From Acutalibacteraceae bacterium (GTDB taxonomy: Bacteria > Bacillota > Clostridia > Oscillospirales > Acutalibacteraceae), in NCBI GenBank assembly GCA_045604385.1, contig JAZUNX010000051.1:1501-65500 (forward strand): 64,000 bases of DNA, in the 5' to 3' direction. Positions within the stretch are counted from its first letter, which is position 1. Each line of letters opens with the position of its first letter. The notes under the pieces are model-generated. The model was not told the DNA's origin, did not search any database, and saw only the letters and a list, made by a program, of their open reading frames with translations. The translations under genes were made by a program, and so were the position numbers. This document shows, piece by piece, positions 3,870 through 53,603 of this stretch.

Positions 3870-4803
3870 AAAAAGAAAGCACCGTTCAGGCGGTCTCAAT
3901 ACCAATTATCTTACCAAAATGGGTGCCCATAACATTATTGCAAACCGCAGCATGTCCTTTTCATCCATAAGCGTTCTTACGGCTTGCCTTCTTCTTATCG
4001 GCGTTTCCGTTATGATTCTTGTCAATATTCAGAATCTTGTCAAGGACGTTGAAAATCAGAATGTTGTTGTTGCCTTCGTAAAAGAGGGCATAAGTGACGA
4101 AGAGGTCGCCAAGGTAGGTGCAGACCTTTCTGCAATTCCCGATGTAACTGCCGTTGAGTTTGTTTCAAAGGAAGCAGGTTACGAGGAACAGCTTCGTGAA
4201 TTCGGTGTGGACGAAAACCTTTTTGACGATGTAATCGAAAATCCTCTTCCTCATTCCTACCGTGTATCCGTAAGTAACCTTGAACAGTTTCAGGTAACTC
4301 TGAACAGTATAAAATCCGTTGCAAATGTTGATGCGGTAAGAGAAAGTCAGGAGCTTGTAAGTCAGATTTCCACTCTGCAGAATTCCATTACGGCGATTTG
4401 CATAATCATTGTTGCTGTTCTTGCCGTGGTTTCCATGTTTATCATTTCCAACACCATCCGTATCACAATGGTATCAAGAAAGATTGATATTCAGGTTATG
4501 AAATCCGTTGGTGCCACCAATACCTTTATATGCTGGCCCTTTATGATTGAGGGTGTTATTATCGGTGTTATTTCCGGTATCCTTGCGGTAATTCTCACTT
4601 TCCTTGTTGAAAAGATTGAAGGCGGCGCTATGCAGTCTCTTCTTGAAATGTTCGGCAGTGAATCTATCTCTCTTACGAGTTATCTGCCTCTTCTTATCCT
4701 TTGCTACCTTTTCTCCGGTGTATTTATCGGTGCTTTCGGCAGTATTGTCTCCATCAGTAAATACCTTAAAAAGGAAGGCAGCGAAGCAAACGAAATGCTT
4801 TAA
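3862..4803 (+). CDS. ftsX: Cell-division permease-like protein FtsX
   Basis: The ATG at 3862 (MAKKRKHRSGG...) overlaps the ftsE stop by 8 nt. Four predicted TM segments with a large extracellular loop. The ORF-track start at 3808 lies inside ftsE and is less likely. Confidence 0.85.
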   Translation: MAKKRKHRSGGLNTNYLTKMGAHNIIANRSMSFSSISVLTACLLLIGVSVMILVNIQNLVKDVENQNVVVAFVKEGISDEEVAKVGADLSAIPDVTAVEFVSKEAGYEEQLREFGVDENLFDDVIENPLPHSYRVSVSNLEQFQVTLNSIKSVANVDAVRESQELVSQISTLQNSITAICIIIVAVLAVVSMFIISNTIRITMVSRKIDIQVMKSVGATNTFICWPFMIEGVIIGVISGILAVILTFLVEKIEGGAMQSLLEMFGSESISLTSYLPLLILCYLFSGVFIGAFGSIVSISKYLKKEGSEANEML

Positions 4804-4811
4804 ATTTTTCC

Positions 4812-4844
4812 GAATAAACCGAAAGATTATCTCTCGGTTTATTC
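4812..4844 (+). terminator. Hairpin after ftsX (weak or partial terminator)
   Basis: GAATAAACCGA ... TCGGTTTATTC, an 11-bp stem followed by TGTTT. The U-tract is poor. Confidence 0.35.
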
Positions 4845-4849
4845 TGTTT

Positions 4850-5126
4850 AAGGTGACAGTAATCGAAGCAAAAAAGGTTTAACGGGGCATATTTTCATAT
4901 TGACTGCGTTAAAAATCCTTGAAAGGCGCCAGCCTTCCTGCGATTTTTGCATTGCCAAAATAAAAATCTTCTCCCATTAAACTTCGAAGAATCTTAAAAG
5001 CCCGAGTTATAGTGTATTTGAGGATTTCTTCGACGAAACAATACTCGCGTCTTGCGAGGAGAAAAATCATCAGAGGTGCTGTAAATCGGACATTTAAGGC
5101 TTATTTGATTCGGTTACTGTCACCTT
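4850..5126 (+). repeat. Copy 1 of the ~270-nt structured intergenic repeat (between ftsX and the first M23 gene)
   Basis: Alignable by eye over its whole length with 28253-28520 and with the reverse complement of 14404-14680. Terminal inverted arms AAGGTGACAGTAATCGAA... / ...TTCGGTTACTGTCACCTT. Confidence 0.8.
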
Positions 5127-5140
5127 GTAGGAGTATAACT

Positions 5141-6484
5141 ATGAGCAAAAAACTTATATCCTCAATATGCCTGTTGCTTGTTTTTGTCTTTGTCTTTACT
5201 CTTAACACATCGGCGGCTACCCAGGCCGAGCTTGAGGCGCAGATTGCCCAGAATAATGCCCAGATTCAGGCTAATCAGGAAAAGCTTGATGAACTCAAAG
5301 AGCAAAAGGCAAATCAACAGCAGTATCTTGAGGCTCTTGAAGAGCAGATTAAGGCAGTTGAAGGCAAAGCCACAAATCTGCAAACCCAGGTTGAATCCAT
5401 CGACACACAGCTTGATAAGCTTGACGGTGAACTCACACAGCTCGGTAACGAGACAAAGGCCATCAACGCAGATATAAAGAAGACAGAAAAAAACATAAAA
5501 GAAACCCAGACAAATATAACACAGAAAAGCGACACTCTTTCTGCCAAGCTCCGTTCAGTTTATATGAACGGAAATCAGTCAGCTTTAAAAATCCTCATGG
5601 GTTCGAAGAGCCTTGCGTCCTTCCTTACCCGTCTTGAAATGATGAAGCGCACATCAGAACAGGATAAAAAGGTTATTCTCGACTTCAAGGAGCAGGTAAC
5701 GGAGCTAAAAAAAGACAAAAAGAAGCTCGAAAAGGATCGTGCAGACCTTGCTGAAAAAGAGGCTGAAATCAGCGTAAAAAAAGACGAGCAGGAAGAAAAG
5801 AAGGCCAGTCTTGTCGAAAAGCAGAAAGAATATGACAGCACCATGTCCAGCCTTGAAAGTCAGTACGGTGAGGTAGAAAAGGTTATGGCAGGTATTGACA
5901 AGTCAAGCTCGGATTATAAAAATTATATCAATAAGCTTGAAGCGGAAAATGCTGCTGCCGATGCTGAAATTGACCGTATTTTAAAGGAATATTACGCCAC
6001 GCAGAATCAGCAGAGTACCACCAGACTTCCCGCCTCAAATGCCGCTCCCGGTGAATCTTATCAGGGCTCGGGAAGCTGGTATTGGCCCATCGGTAACACC
6101 TGGTGCTATATTAGCAGCGGATTCGGTTACCGTGATGCTAGCATATCAGGCTGGGGATTTCACGGAGGTATAGACCTTGCAGGCGGTAACGGTAAGCTTC
6201 ACGGCGCACCTGTCTATGCCACAAGAGCAGGCTCCGTCATTGCAGCCGTCACAAGTAATTCAGGCTACGGAATTTATGTGCTTATCGACCACGGTGACGG
6301 TTATTCAAGCCTTTATGCCCATATGTCTGCAAGATATGTAAACGTAGGTGACTATGTAACACAGGGGCAGATGATAGGCAGAGTAGGTAATACGGGCAAC
6401 TCAAGAGGCGCCCATCTTCATTTTGAAATCCGCTACTACGGCGAAAAGAAAAATCCTCTCAATTACGTTAAAAACCCCAACTGA
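5141..6484 (+). CDS. Secreted coiled-coil M23 (LytM-type) peptidoglycan endopeptidase, FtsEX-associated type
   Basis: ATG at 5141 with GTAGGAG RBS. Signal peptide MSKKLISSICLLLVFVFVFTLNTSAA. Long heptad-rich region. Intact FHGGIDLAG (HxxxD) and HLHFEI (HxH) motifs. The ORF-track start at 5012 reads through the repeat element. Confidence 0.85.
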   Translation: MSKKLISSICLLLVFVFVFTLNTSAATQAELEAQIAQNNAQIQANQEKLDELKEQKANQQQYLEALEEQIKAVEGKATNLQTQVESIDTQLDKLDGELTQLGNETKAINADIKKTEKNIKETQTNITQKSDTLSAKLRSVYMNGNQSALKILMGSKSLASFLTRLEMMKRTSEQDKKVILDFKEQVTELKKDKKKLEKDRADLAEKEAEISVKKDEQEEKKASLVEKQKEYDSTMSSLESQYGEVEKVMAGIDKSSSDYKNYINKLEAENAAADAEIDRILKEYYATQNQQSTTRLPASNAAPGESYQGSGSWYWPIGNTWCYISSGFGYRDASISGWGFHGGIDLAGGNGKLHGAPVYATRAGSVIAAVTSNSGYGIYVLIDHGDGYSSLYAHMSARYVNVGDYVTQGQMIGRVGNTGNSRGAHLHFEIRYYGEKKNPLNYVKNPN

Positions 6485-14403: not shown

Positions 14404-14680
14404 AGGGTGGCGACAATCGAACCGAATAAGCCTTAAAAGTCCGATTTTCGGCACCTTTTAAATTTTTTCTCCTCGTAATACGAGAGTATTACTTCGTCGA
14501 AGAAAACCCAAATGCACCAAAACTCGGGCATTTTAGGTTTTCAAAGTTTAACACAAGAAGATTTTTGTCAGCCTCAAGGCAAAAGGTGAAGGCAATACTT
14601 GCGTATTGGCAAGCCTTTTAATGCAGAGATGGCGGAAATATACCGTGTTAAACCTTATTGGGTTCGACTGTCGTTACCCT
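14404..14680 (-). repeat. Copy 3 of the ~270-nt structured repeat (between rfbC and rfbD, minus orientation)
   Basis: Its reverse complement aligns along its length with 28253-28520. The rfbC stop codon (14674-14676) lies inside the 5' arm, and the element ends 1 nt before the rfbD SD (GAGGTGA). Confidence 0.8.
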
Positions 14681-27669: not shown

Positions 27670-28254
27670 ATGCCTTTAGTACCTTATGTAGTAGAGCAGA
27701 CAAGCAGAGGAGAAAGAAGCTACGACATTTATTCGAGACTTCTCAATGACCGTATCATCGTTCTTTCCGACGAAGTAAATGACGCCACAGCTTCTCTTGT
27801 CGTAGCCCAGCTTTTATTCCTTGAAAGTCAGGATTCCGAAAAGGACATCAGTTTTTATATCAACAGCCCCGGTGGCTCCGTGACTGCAGGTATGGCGATT
27901 TATGATACTATGCAGTACATCAAATGTGATGTTTCAACCATCTGTATGGGTCTTGCCGCAAGTATGGGTGCATTCCTTCTTTCTTCCGGCACAAAGGGAA
28001 AAAGATACTGCCTTCCCAACAGTGAGGTTATGATTCATCAGCCTTCAGGCGGTGCAAAGGGTCAGGCTACAGATATCAAAATAGTAGCAGACCACATCTT
28101 AAGAACAAAAGAAAAGCTCAACAGGATTTTAGCCGAAAACACAGGCAAGGATATTTCAGTTATTGCTGAAGATACAGAAAGAGATAACTTTATGACAGCC
28201 GAAGAGGCACTCGAATACGGTCTTGTTGACAAGATTTTATATAAGAGAGATTAA
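27670..28254 (+). CDS. clpP: ATP-dependent Clp protease proteolytic subunit
   Basis: [11 protein letters not shown] (Ser), MIHQPSGG (His) and ERD (Asp) triad contexts. 194 aa. Confidence 0.95.
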
Positions 28255-28520
28255 GGTTACGGTAACCGAAACCGATAAGGTTTAACAGGGAATGTTTCCG
28301 CCCTATCTGCGTTAAAAGGCTTGACAATACGCAAGTATTGCCTTGTGAGGATGGCAAAAATCTTCTCGTGTTAAACTTTGAAGAAGCTAAAATGCCCGAG
28401 TTATAGTGCATTTTAGGATTTCTTCGACGAAACAATACTCGCGTATTGCGAGGAGAAAAATTATTAAAGGTGCTGTAAATCGGACGTTTAAGGCTTATTG
28501 GGTTCGATTGCCGTCACCTT
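28253..28520 (+). repeat. Copy 2 of the ~270-nt structured repeat (between clpP and clpX)
   Basis: Starts within the clpP TAA and ends 17 nt before the clpX ATG (SD AAGGGG directly after it). Terminal arms AAGGTTACGGTAACCGAA... / ...TTCGATTGCCGTCACCTT. Confidence 0.8.
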
Positions 28521-28537
28521 AAAAGGGGTAGTTATTT

Positions 28538-29833
28538 ATGGCAAGAGACGGTGACATCAAAGAAAAAAATGTAAGATGTTCCTTTTGCAACAAATCCCAG
28601 AGTGATGTTAAAACATTGATTGCAGGTCCCGGTGTATACATCTGTAACGAATGTGTGGCGCTTTGCAGTGAAATCGTTGAAGAGGAAACGGACAAAACAG
28701 CAGGTAAAAGCGAAAATGATTTTGCATCACTGAAAAAGCCGAGTGAAATAAAAGCTCTTCTTGACGAATATGTTATCGGACAGGATGAGGCGAAAAAAGC
28801 GCTCAGCGTTGCGGTTTACAATCATTACAAAAGAATATATTCGGGTAAAGACAGTCCCGTAGAGGTAGGTAAGAGTAATATTCTTATGCTCGGCCCCACA
28901 GGTGTAGGTAAGACAATGCTTGCTCAGACTCTTGCAAGGATACTTGACGTACCTTTCGCGATAGCCGATGCTACCACTCTCACAGAGGCAGGTTATGTTG
29001 GTGAAGACGTTGAAAATATTCTTTTAAGGCTCATTCAGGCGGCAGATTTTGACGTGGAAAGAGCGGAAAAGGGTATTATCTATGTTGACGAAATTGACAA
29101 AATCGGCAGAAAGAGCGAAAGCACATCCATAACAAGAGATGTAAGCGGTGAAGGCGTTCAGCAGGCACTTCTGAAAATATTGGAAGGTACTGTTTCCAAT
29201 GTACCTCCCCAGGGTGGCAGAAAGCATCCTCAACAGGAATTCATTCAGATTGACACTACAAACATCCTCTTTATCTGCGCAGGTTCCTTTGAAGGAATTG
29301 AAAAGATAGTTGAAAAGAGAATGGGTAATTCAGGTCTCGGCTTCGGTGCATCCATAAAAACAAAGAGTGATTTCGAAAGCAGCAAGATAATGCATAAGGT
29401 TGTCCATCACGATCTCGTAAAGTTCGGACTTATTCCCGAGCTGGTTGGACGACTTCCTGTCATAACCGCTCTCGATAATCTTGACGAAGCGGCGCTTGTA
29501 AGAATTATGACGGAACCTAAAAATGCACTCGTCAAGCAGTATCAGTACCTTTTCGGCATTGATGATATTGAGCTTGAGTTTGACTTTGATGCCCTTAAGG
29601 CTATTGCTGAAAAGACACTTGAAGCCAAAACAGGCGCCAGAGGTCTGCGTTCAATAATGGAAAAATTGCTTCTTGATTATATGTATGAGGTTCCTTCCGA
29701 GGGCACCTTCGGTAAGCTTCTTATTACAAAAGAAGCCGTTGAGGGCACGGAAAAGGCGATGATTGACACTTTTGAAGGCTCGGAAGGTAAACATTTCCGT
29801 CTTCCTCAGTCCAAACGTAAAAAATCTGAATAA
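28538..29833 (+). CDS. clpX: ATP-dependent Clp protease ATP-binding subunit ClpX
   Basis: Zinc-finger CSFCNK...CNEC. Walker A GPTGVGKT. Walker [10 protein letters not shown]. Confidence 0.95.
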
Positions 29834-46024: not shown

Positions 46025-46139
46025 CAATTTTTAATAATTTTTATTAATATTTATCAAAATAAATATCTGATTCGGAAGTTAGCGACCAAGTCGCATTAAT
46101 TCATATTCCGACGCGGCGATTTCTAAACATATAAGCATA

Positions 46140-46256
46140 AATGTATGAAAAGCCGTGCGTGACCGAAAAAACACTGCCTGTAGGGAGAAAAAATACAGGT
46201 ACCGGTCAAAGGGTAGAGAGGGAAACGTTTCTACCTTCCGTGATTGAAAAGGAGAA
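46140..46256 (+). promoter_or_regulatory. Candidate Moco/Tuco (moaA-motif) riboswitch leader of tupA
   Basis: Helices TGACCG/CGGTCA, CCTGTA/TACAGG and GGTAGA/TCTACC, then CCTTCCG...GAAAAGGAG overlapping the SD. From memory this resembles the E. coli moaA leader (GCACCUGGG..CCAGGG..CGCCUCCCG..GGAAAGG). The gene context fits. Confidence 0.55.
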
Positions 46257-46262
46257 TGAATT

Positions 46263-47126
46263 ATGAAAAAACTTCTTGCAGTATTATTCACAGCATTGAT
46301 GCTCTTCTCACTAGCTGCCTGTGGCGGCGGTGGCGGAGAGGAAACCACAGCACCCGACACTACGGTACAGGCACCTGCTAATCCCATCATCCGTATGTCA
46401 ACCACCACATCCGTAAACGATTCAGGTCTTCTTCCTTATCTTCTTCCTGTTTTTGAAAAGGCGACAGGCTACACTGTTGAAGTTCAGTCAGCAGGTACAG
46501 GTGCCGCTATCCAAAAGGCAAAGGACGGAAACGCTGACCTTATCCTCGTTCACGCAAAGGCATCAGAAGAAGAATTTATCTCTGAAGGCTACGGTGTGGA
46601 AAGAATCCCCTTTATGTATAACTACTTTGTAGTTGTAGGTCCCGAAGCAGATCCTGCCGCTATCAAAGACAGCGAAAGTGCTGCAGTGGCATTCGGCAAA
46701 ATTGCCGACACAAAGTCAACCTTCATTTCCCGCGGTGATGAAAGCGGTACACATAAGGCAGAGCTTAAAATCTGGGGCGAAAATGTTCCCGATGCAGAAA
46801 AAGATGCCTGGTATGTAAGTGCAGGTCAGGGCATGGGCGCATGTCTTACAATGGCAAGTGAAAAAGGAGCATACTGTCTTACAGATAAGGCAACCTTCCT
46901 TTCAAATAAAGACTCTCTCAATCTTGAAATCGTCCTTTCCGAGGGTGAAGATATGAAGAATACATATTCTCTTATCGAATGTAACCCCGAAAAGCTCGAC
47001 GGTGTAAACACCGAAGGCGCAAAGGCTCTTATCGAATGGATGACAGGTGACGAGGCTTCTGCTCTTATCGCTGAATACGGCAAAGAGCAGTACGGTTCAG
47101 CTCTTTTCTGTCTTATCGAAGAATAA
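46263..47126 (+). CDS. tupA: Tungstate (TupA-like) ABC transporter substrate-binding lipoprotein
   Basis: Lipobox LAAC. STTTSVNDSGLL anion-binding-type motif. Adjacent permease and ATPase. Confidence 0.7.
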   Translation: MKKLLAVLFTALMLFSLAACGGGGGEETTAPDTTVQAPANPIIRMSTTTSVNDSGLLPYLLPVFEKATGYTVEVQSAGTGAAIQKAKDGNADLILVHAKASEEEFISEGYGVERIPFMYNYFVVVGPEADPAAIKDSESAAVAFGKIADTKSTFISRGDESGTHKAELKIWGENVPDAEKDAWYVSAGQGMGACLTMASEKGAYCLTDKATFLSNKDSLNLEIVLSEGEDMKNTYSLIECNPEKLDGVNTEGAKALIEWMTGDEASALIAEYGKEQYGSALFCLIEE

Positions 47127-47129
47127 GCC

Positions 47130-47810
47130 TTGGAAAAAATAGTTGAAGCCTTTGAAATGCTTTTGAATATGGACAGGGAGCTGTTACAGATTATCGGTGT
47201 AACGCTCCGTATGTCCTTTTTCAGCACATGGATTTCCTGTCTTGTGGGTATGCCTCTTGGCGTGATTATTGCAAAAGGCAATTTTAAAGGCAAAAGGACA
47301 GTCAGAAAAATAACCGGTACTTTTATGGGCTTGCCTCCTGTGGTGGCAGGCCTGATTGTCTATCTTCTTTTCACCAAATACGGCATATTCGGCTCTTTGG
47401 GTTTACTGTTTACTGTGGAGGTTATGGTAATTGCCCAATGTATGCTTATAATTCCCGTTGTGATAAATCTTACCGAATCCATTATATCTGTTAATGTGAA
47501 ATCTCTTACGGAAACGGCAAAGGGACTGAATTTTTCCAAAAGAAAAACTTCTCTTCTTCTTCTTACGGAAAACAGGTTTTCTCTCATTTCCGTTTTGCTT
47601 ACCGCCTTTGGCAGATCTATTGCCGAGGTGGGAGCCGTTAGTCTTGTGGGCGGTAACATTCAGTGGAAAACAAGAGTTATGACAACGGCAATTATGCTCG
47701 AAACAAATAAGGGTAATTTTACCTTTGCTCTTGCATTGGGTATTGTACTTCTTTTTATTTCACTTGCTGTCAATATCCTCGCATCGCTTCTTATAAGGGA
47801 GGATAAATGA
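47130..47810 (+). CDS. tupB: Tungstate ABC transporter permease
   Basis: 226 aa, about 5 TM segments. Between tupA and tupC. Confidence 0.7.
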   Translation: MEKIVEAFEMLLNMDRELLQIIGVTLRMSFFSTWISCLVGMPLGVIIAKGNFKGKRTVRKITGTFMGLPPVVAGLIVYLLFTKYGIFGSLGLLFTVEVMVIAQCMLIIPVVINLTESIISVNVKSLTETAKGLNFSKRKTSLLLLTENRFSLISVLLTAFGRSIAEVGAVSLVGGNIQWKTRVMTTAIMLETNKGNFTFALALGIVLLFISLAVNILASLLIREDK

Positions 47811-48478
47811 TGATTGAAATTAAAAATCTTACCAAAAAATACGGTGACAGAACTGTTCTCCAAATTAATTTTCTCGAAGTAAAAAAGGGTGAAACCATTG
47901 TAGTTGTCGGACCCAACGGAAGCGGTAAAAGCACCCTTCTTAAAATCATTTCGGGAATTTTACCGAAAAGCTCAGGTGAATTTTCTGCAGACGGTGATAT
48001 ATATTATCTGCCTCAACAAAGTATACCCTTCAGAAGAACCGTGAGAAAAAATCTGATGTTTTCTGTAAAGGGTGACAGTGAAAAGGAAAACACTGTGGAA
48101 GAGATAATTTCTCTGCTCTCTCTGTCTGATTTGGCTGATAAAAATGCCGCAGGTCTTTCGGGCGGTGAGTGTCAGAGACTTGCTTTGGGAAGGGTGTTCG
48201 TTAACGAAGGCGACTTTCTTCTTTTAGACGAACCGTCGAGTGCCGCCGATATAGAAGGAACGGAAATTATAGAAAATGCAATAAATGAGTACAAGAAGAA
48301 AACGGGTTGCGGCATTCTTATGACCACCCATTCACCGTCGCAAGCAAGAAGACTTGCCGACAGAATAATTATTCTTCATAAAGGGGAAATAGCCGAGCAA
48401 GGCTCACCCGACGAGCTTTTAGTCTCACCGAAAAGTCTTTGGGGTAAAAAGTTCATTGATTCCTGGAAATTTGATTAA
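47807..48478 (+). CDS. tupC: Tungstate ABC transporter ATP-binding protein
   Basis: Walker A GPNGSGKST, signature LSGGECQRL, Walker B LLLDEP. ATGA overlap with tupB. Confidence 0.75.
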   Translation: MMIEIKNLTKKYGDRTVLQINFLEVKKGETIVVVGPNGSGKSTLLKIISGILPKSSGEFSADGDIYYLPQQSIPFRRTVRKNLMFSVKGDSEKENTVEEIISLLSLSDLADKNAAGLSGGECQRLALGRVFVNEGDFLLLDEPSSAADIEGTEIIENAINEYKKKTGCGILMTTHSPSQARRLADRIIILHKGEIAEQGSPDELLVSPKSLWGKKFIDSWKFD

Positions 48479-53516: not shown

Positions 53517-53603
53517 TGGTGCAGACGATGGGACTTGAACCCACATGAAATTGCTTTCACTAGTACCTGAAACTAGCGCGTCTGCCAATTCCGCCACATC
53601 TGC
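53517..53603 (-). tRNA. tRNA-Leu (anticodon CAG), CCA encoded
   Basis: Hand-folded cloverleaf. Acceptor GCAGATG/CGTCTGC. Anticodon stem CTAGT/ACTAG with loop TTCAGGT. Long variable arm. T arm GTGGG-TTCAAGT-CCCAT. 3' ACCA. Confidence 0.9.

Follow-up and report, generated by a model that had tools for sequence, protein, structure and literature searches.

A probable family of TA-flanked, non-autonomous DNA transposons with a conserved fold in operons of gut Oscillospirales

Correia elements (NEMIS) of Neisseria are non-coding MITEs (miniature inverted-repeat transposable elements) with inverted repeats of ~26 bp and TA ends, which occur in intergenic regions and inside operons and are co-transcribed (PMC2229807). 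The hairpin formed by their repeats is a target of RNase III, which alters the fate of the mRNA (PMC2229807). Here we describe an element of ~270 nt, present in three copies in a 64,000-nt stretch of contig JAZUNX010000051.1 of an Acutalibacteraceae bacterium (assembly GCA_045604385.1), hereafter the window. The element resembles Correia in the size of its inverted repeats, its TA ends, and its position inside operons. However, Correia elements are simple hairpins of 100-155 bp with an integration host factor (IHF) site and promoter elements, whereas the element described here has ~277 bp and a three-way fold, lacks sequence similarity to Correia, and comes from a different phylum. The element is probably a non-autonomous DNA transposon, a MITE of ~270-280 bp whose family circulates in gut Oscillospirales. 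This TA-flanked family is apparently undescribed, and apparently belongs to the known class of bacterial MITEs and not to a new kind of regulator. Operons tolerate it as an intercistronic RNA module, and may make use of it.

ERIC/IRU of Enterobacteria and Yersinia is an imperfect palindrome transcribed in operons, with an orientation-dependent effect on the neighbouring mRNA (PMC2229807, PMC3049150). It has ~127 bp and a sequence unrelated to the element, and its orientation-dependent RNase E effect was measured, whereas for the element the orientation bias alone is seen. RUP of Streptococcus pneumoniae inserts at TA, is often located in or near mobile elements, and is predicted to form a tightly folded RNA (PMC2229807, PMC3049150). 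Similar to RUP, the element is probably a folded MITE of Firmicutes that would insert at TA, and it is found beside other mobile elements. RUP, in contrast, has 107 bp and repeats matching a known IS630 member (it is mobilised by IS630-Spn1), while the element has no known partner. The bcr1 repeat of the Bacillus cereus group is transcribed and forms two independent stem-loops ("cruciform-like"), with compensatory changes that maintain the fold (PMC3184786). The element is likewise a mobile Firmicutes repeat with two hairpin domains and compensatory changes. Nonetheless, bcr1 has ~155 bp and 5-bp direct repeats, in contrast to the ~277 bp, the TA flanks, and the extra 20-bp closing helix made by the terminal repeats of the element; assignment to bcr1 was rejected on size, flanks and host, and bcr1 is an analogue only. 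BOX and SPRITE of S. pneumoniae have extensive predicted RNA structure, are co-transcribed, and can exert orientation-dependent effects on their neighbours (PMC3049150). BOX has a modular make-up (boxA/B/C), SPRITE resembles a terminator, and neither matches the element in sequence or architecture. The element shares no sequence with Correia, ERIC, RUP or bcr1, and is larger, with a three-part fold. An earlier, sequence-only reading of this DNA had called the element functionally comparable to ERIC/IRU, Correia or BOX-type elements, and these are indeed nearest in kind.

The three copies of the window, named w1, w2 and w3, are alignable over the entire length of each (268-278 bp). Copy w1 is located at 4850..5126 (+) between ftsX and an M23 peptidase gene, w2 at 28253..28520 (+) between the clpP stop codon and the clpX Shine-Dalgarno (SD) sequence, and w3 at 14404..14680 (-) between rfbC and rfbD. 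Pairwise comparison with blastn gave identities of 78.1% for w1 and w2 (278 nt), 83.3% for w2 and w3 (263 nt), and 73.3% for w1 and w3 (255 nt), without any other match in the window; the three-copy family that had been aligned by eye is therefore confirmed at 73-83% identity. Blocks common to the copies were present at just these three places of the window (three patterns scanned, with up to 2-3 mismatches). The 23-nt and 27-nt block patterns had no match in 100 shuffles, and a 13-mer block had three exact matches in the window, all in w1-w3. The element is non-coding, with internal open reading frames (ORFs) of just 4-7 codons, and no ORF conserved among the copies was found.

Pfam identified the flanking genes as FtsX/M23 peptidase, ClpP/ClpX and RfbC/RfbD, as previously named, and the coordinates bear out the earlier description of the copies relative to stop codons and SDs. 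The clpP stop codon TAA occupies 28252-28254, and w2 begins inside it, with TA at 28252-28253 and at 28520-28521 as its flanks. The clpX gene follows with the SD AAGGGG at 28523-28528 and its ATG at 28538. The ftsX stop is located at 4803, w1 begins 46 nt downstream, and the M23 gene after it has the SD AGGAG and its ATG at 5141. The rfbC TAA (14676-14674) sits 5-7 nt within w3, which means that the stop is supplied by the element, and the rfbD SD GAGGTG directly adjoins the right end. The right end is separated from the start of the SD by 0-3 nt in all three copies.

The same three sites are empty in relatives of the host, which indicates that the element was inserted and is mobile. The relatives compared are congeneric genomes of other species, with DNA 85-90% identical and ClpP 91-99% identical. 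Between clpP and clpX, the window has 283 nt, and 34 contigs of relatives have 12-19 nt. The rfbC-rfbD spacer measures 281 nt versus 17 nt in six contigs (L058-L063), and the ftsX-M23 spacer 337 nt versus 71 nt in two contigs (L058, L059). One relative's contig (L038 and L058) is empty at all three sites, and no copy was found in ~220 kb of the relatives' orthologous regions. A site outside the window is also empty in a relative: the element of locus L012 is missing from L013, where the orthologue of the downstream gene has no element upstream. At the left end of the element, each of the three reading frames meets a stop codon within 33 nt, and insertion thus replaced the native C-terminus of the upstream protein. 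The upstream ORF ends inside the element in three copies (L002 3257-3289, L013 7339-7371, and window 14674-14680), and the C-terminus of RfbC is ...DFIG in the window versus ...DFVY in relatives.

Two further features were seen in these spacers. One relative has an unrelated clpP-clpX spacer of ~60 nt with a hairpin GACATC...GATGTC (L037 2086-2148), whereas that of the other relatives has 12-19 nt. Straight after the ftsX stop, at 4815-4846, we found a hairpin AAACCGA...TCGGTTT, which is kept in the relative L058. The ftsX-M23 junction may hold an attenuator or terminator upstream of w1.

Outside the window, a scan with a 22-base block retrieved 14 loci in 10 Oscillospirales metagenome-assembled genomes (MAGs) from human, goat and sheep gut, which belong to Acutalibacteraceae, Oscillospiraceae, "Clostridia", and one Faecalibacterium. 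A second, independent block retrieved four true copies in metagenome contigs together with four chance matches. In total, the 10 MAGs and the metagenomes yielded more than 17 further copies, whose neighbours differ. Thirteen full copies of the main subfamily are 90% identical by column in unlike gene contexts, and w1 is the window copy closest in type to the copies of other MAGs. Plasmids and the viral contigs of IMG/VR were also scanned, and no copies of the element were detected there. The literature revealed no paper with the sequences of the element, and none linking MITEs to Oscillospiraceae.

A covariance model built on the 13 full main-subfamily copies was used to find remoter types, and it also retrieved degenerate fragments. 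Subfamily 2 (L015, L018, L021) is 62% identical to the main subfamily, has unlike termini (TAGGCAAAAGGGAGTCGAAC), and folds with a minimum free energy (MFE) of about -120 to -130 kcal/mol (z = -12). A third type, at L011 543-816 (+) and with its right end at L012 1-150 (+), possesses the size and architecture of the main subfamily, with a different sequence and the termini TAAGTTGGCGAGTGCAATCCGAAAC. Both third-type elements lie flush against a main-subfamily copy, with a TA common to both. Human-faecal phage contigs carry a relative of 171 nt (L064 2945-3115, MT835604; L065 2944-3080, MT835719), which has a homologous domain A, the first of the two hairpin domains described below, without domain B, and different terminal repeats (T[T/A]AGAACCYGTCTTCACA). 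It is located just ahead of a terminator in L064 and is truncated in L065. A relative with domain A alone suggests that the family may be modular.

Two of the loci, L005 6470-7600 and L006 770-1870, hold orthologous copies, and their MAGs share just ~1.1 kb there. The common segment runs from an XRE-type helix-turn-helix gene through the element into the beginning of a 141-amino-acid gene, in unrelated surroundings; this copy rides within a larger exchanged segment. The pair was dropped as a test of selection in situ because ~1.1 kb of common DNA gives no usable neutral reference.

Terminal inverted repeats of ~28 nt that form a 20-bp helix were present in all full copies of the three subfamilies, and in the window copies this helix contains a single mismatch. 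In w2, the closing helix P1 has the left repeat at 28253..28272 (+) as its 5' arm and the right repeat at 28501..28520 (+) as its 3' arm. Inverted repeats of ~34 nt closing the whole element had been proposed from the letters; the closing helix was recovered, with repeats of ~28 nt instead. The four arm positions reported to change together correspond to columns 2/279, 9/272, 10/271 and 11/270 of our alignment and do covary. Columns 2/279 change as an inverted pair (A..T to G..C), and are therefore part of the repeat rather than of a duplication. The flanks of the main subfamily are T on the left in 12/15 cases and A on the right in 10/14, and subfamily 2 has T|A on both sides in 3/3. At three of the 13 main-subfamily sites (L011, L012, L014), the element adjoins the terminus of a neighbouring element in an inverted repeat-TA-inverted repeat junction, with the sequences ...CACCT-TA-AGTTGG..., ...CACCC-TA-AGGTGAC..., and ...CACCT-TA-GGGTGACG.... 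The Faecalibacterium MAG carries an internally deleted remnant of 52 nt between two co-directional genes (L004 4083-4134), in which the left terminus is fused to an internal AAGGTG via microhomology.

Seven of the 13 sites have AGG or GGG 0-3 nt past the right end, a motif that is never mirrored at the left. The empty rfbC-rfbD spacer of a relative (L058 10553-10569) reads TAAGGTGACGTGATAAG, with TGATAAG duplicated in it, and its first 10 nt equal the terminus of the element; the stretch TAAGGTGACG of this spacer is the rfbD SD and identical to that terminus. It may represent either an attracting SD or a footprint. These features are suggestive of a preferred target composed of TA and then a terminus-like, hence SD-like, motif. 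Such a preference would account for the landing sites by stop codon and SD and for those beside other copies. The start in the stop codon and the end at the SD are explained by insertion at TA within a spacer of 12-19 nt. The arms had also been read as SD and anti-SD sequences; this look is restricted to one subfamily, and is absent from the others, with the termini TAGGCAAAAGGG and TAAGTTGGCGAG.

Rfam 15 was searched with the three copies at gathering thresholds and at permissive E-values, and no match was found, in agreement with the earlier statement that the element is no named RNA family. The best scores were 16-20 bits, compared to thresholds of 55-100 (E >= 0.3). Two candidate relationships were rejected. 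The segment GGTTCGA(A/T)T (GGTTCGAAT) near the 3' end resembles a T-loop and prompted the idea of a tRNA, tmRNA or T-arm; ARAGORN was negative for all copies, and the pairing partner of this segment is instead the left arm of the element. The base of domain A carries GTTTAAC...GTTAAAC, in agreement with the RYYYAAC/GTTRRRY of integron attC sites; this sequence is absent in subfamily 2 and the phage type.

RNAalifold predicted a Y-shaped fold in which the 20-bp closing helix is joined by two hairpin domains, A (~110 nt) and B (~108 nt). In w2, domain A (28278..28378, +) is a long hairpin with a variable apex, here CAATAC-GCAA-GTATTG, and domain B (28386..28493, +) is a long imperfect hairpin with the apex CTCGC-GTATT-GCGAG. 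The internal hairpins were thus recovered as listed in the sequence-only reading. Compensation was found in 22/92 pairs among the 13 near-identical main-subfamily copies. In the alignment of 20 sense copies including subfamily 2, whose pairing counts carry the caveat that it was fitted to the covariance model, 96% of the cells pair, and 38/92 pairs changed on both sides, compared to 5-16 when the partners were slid by 1-3 columns; none of 500 shuffles attained the observed pairing and covariation values. The closing helix has 10/19 pairs changed on both sides, with bases ~250 nt apart, and the three-part architecture is kept between subfamilies that are just 62% identical. MFE values were also far below those of shuffles, with z = -5.3 for w2 and -5.2 for w1. 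With its natural flanks, the element is predicted to fold as a closed module that leaves the downstream SD mostly unpaired. The fold is real and conserved.

The compensatory changes from which selection on pairing had been claimed are therefore genuine; being Watson-Crick, they favour neither strand. In the main subfamily, the sense and antisense MFE are a few kcal/mol apart in either direction; the antisense strand folds better for w1 and w3, and sense is clearly favoured just in w2 and subfamily 2. These values leave the earlier count of more G.U pairs in the sense strand (7 versus 3) as weak evidence. G.U cells number 151 and A.C cells 22, from a structure derived from the sense strand. This excess was not counted as evidence of strand asymmetry because of that derivation and the symmetric energies of the main subfamily. 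A conserved functional core, TTTCTTCGACGAA..ATACTC, was rejected, as its apparent universality is the scan pattern itself.

All 11 main-subfamily sites with a visible downstream ORF have the element co-oriented with the downstream gene, which has a probability of about 0.0005 under random orientation. At 8/11 of these sites, the start codon follows the right end at a distance of 11-39 nt. GC skew is positive over the entire window, which places w3 on the lagging strand, and w3 is still co-oriented with its genes; this single case argues against an orientation linked to replication. The third-type element L011b has the antisense orientation relative to the gene ending at its terminus. An internal promoter, TTGAAG-18-TATAGT in w2, was rejected as a constraint because the -10 is absent in 4/13 copies, and no conserved promoter was detected among the copies.

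The element therefore has the features of a MITE, namely terminal inverted repeats, a small, non-coding, dispersed and multi-copy nature, and sites that are filled in some genomes and empty in others. We suppose that a transposase supplied in trans would bind the inverted repeats and insert the element at TA. The TA would point to an IS630/Tc1-mariner-like enzyme, a RUP-like class with which the TA flanks are compatible; the alternative would be an IS30-like enzyme that targets inverted repeats. The termini may resemble mariner repeats. The target of choice may be TA followed by AGG or GGG, similar to the terminus of the element itself (TA-AGGTGAC) and to an SD. Such a choice would place copies after a stop codon and ahead of the following ribosome-binding site, or beside other copies. 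The self-contained fold would join its own 5' and 3' ends and keep the upstream stop and the downstream SD a helix-width apart, and with the SD mostly free the insertion would be tolerated. Selection may then remove opposite-orientation insertions and unstructured variants, which would lead to the sense bias and the upkeep of the fold. An additional regulatory effect, for instance RNase III cutting of the 20-bp closing helix by analogy with Correia, is possible.

Several points weigh against this interpretation. No transposase partner with matching repeats was found in the window, in 22 related loci, in plasmids, in phages, or in viral contigs; moreover, no paired termini 1-2 kb apart around a partner were found in the fetched loci, and no ORF recurred among them. 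TA is palindromic, and a 2-bp duplication is thus indistinguishable from an inverted repeat that reaches further. Since the relatives with empty alleles are of other species, at 85-90% DNA identity, exact ancestral sites cannot be rebuilt. Sense orientation in 11/11 sites is not predicted by a cut-and-paste MITE alone, nor are paired changes in internal hairpins, nor the presence on phage contigs of a homologous domain A with quite different terminal repeats. Weak terminator-like hairpins are present on both strands of the element, and do not single out an antisense terminator as the cause of the sense bias. Nevertheless, most of what would make the element a plain MITE, the outcome that the sequence-only reading had named as its own refutation, was seen: the copies are recent insertions at sites that are empty in relatives, with ~28-bp repeats, T|A flanks, junctions to other copies over a common TA, and deletion remnants. 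The exceptions are that orientation is non-random and that no transposase parent was detected.

The same reading had proposed an RNA-level module inside operons. In this view, the element transposed in and was then kept in operons as a processing site, a stabiliser or an insulator that would uncouple or tune the downstream cistron, affecting for instance the ClpP:ClpX ratio, with both its fold and its orientation maintained by that function. We hold this to be unlikely. It is consistent with the 11/11 sense orientation and right ends 11-39 nt before start codons, with the kept fold (38/92 pairs changed on both sides), and with a 20-bp closing helix long enough for RNase III. In subfamily 2, the sense fold is also better than the antisense by ~20 kcal/mol, and ERIC and Correia offer precedents (PMC2229807, PMC3049150). 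However, all examined relatives run the three operons without the element, the flanking genes are functionally unrelated, the SD/anti-SD look of the arms is missing in other subfamilies, and the main subfamily folds equally well in sense and antisense. Between subfamilies, loops are no better conserved than stems (63% of unpaired versus 62% of paired columns). The window copies are also somewhat more degraded, with 4-8/92 consensus pairs broken versus 1-3 in most others, and fold more weakly, which suggests drift over maintenance. The case for RNA-level selection is mainly the orientation bias, plus the conserved fold. The earlier proposal is thus partly right: the copies are structured, in sense, and inside transcription units, and the strong orientation bias remains in its favour, but they behave as insertions, like a MITE, and are lacking in relatives.

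Rather unlikely, too, is a mobile RNA module for intercistronic spacers that would seek out ribosome-binding sites, with TA-AGGTGAC as an SD-mimicking terminus that delivers it exactly to the gap from stop codon to SD, the sense strand alone functional, and the Y-shaped fold as the selected unit, for example for processing or insulation that uncouples the cistrons. Such a module would explain the internal covariation, the 11/11 sense orientation, and the reuse of domain A with unrelated terminal repeats, including in phage genomes.

Mobility as single-stranded DNA, in which a HUH transposase or an Xer-/integrase-like recombinase recognises the folded strand, appears improbable. Hairpins acting as the transposition substrate would explain the internal covariation together with terminal sequences that vary between subfamilies and in the phage-borne relative. 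Non-random orientation also agrees with it, as does a conserved fold with free sequence, which is the case in attC sites and IS200/IS605 ends. However, the element possesses true flush inverted repeats flanked by TA and its left flanks have no common tetra- or pentanucleotide, whereas elements of the IS200/IS605 type lack repeats of this kind and are inserted, without a duplication, on the 3' side of a fixed tetra- or pentanucleotide. In addition, w3, the sole informative case, is oriented by gene rather than by replication strand, and neither HUH nor recombinase genes are recurrent neighbours of the copies. Very improbable, finally, is the absence of any structural selection, with paired changes from template switching in quasi-palindromes (quasi-palindrome correction is an established mutational mechanism) and an orientation bias from the sampling of 11 sites under gene-strand bias: all compensations are Watson-Crick and strand-neutral, and 11/11 has a probability of about 0.09 if orientation tracks replication and ~80% of genes are on the leading strand, but the closing helix spans ~250 nt and still has 10/19 pairs changed on both sides, the divergent subfamilies share one architecture, and w3 contradicts an orientation driven by replication.

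As a probable MITE, this repeat of ~277 bp stretches intercistronic spacers from ~15 to ~280 nt and breaks assemblies, in uncultured gut Oscillospirales that are poorly annotated. The element gives upstream proteins different C-termini, and it can pass for a riboswitch or small RNA. The clpP-clpX, rfbC-rfbD and ftsX-M23 operons with and without the insert in sister species constitute a natural experiment. Should RNA-level selection or SD-mimic targeting underlie the bias, the family would hold a general lesson on how mobile DNA is tolerated in compact operons.

Two known RNAs were also found in the window. An RF01055 Moco/tungsten riboswitch aptamer (61 bits) is located at 46094-46270 (+), just 5' of ORFs at 46263-48478 that resemble a transporter operon. 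The sole tRNA of the window is a tRNA-Leu (CAG) at 53517-53603 (-).

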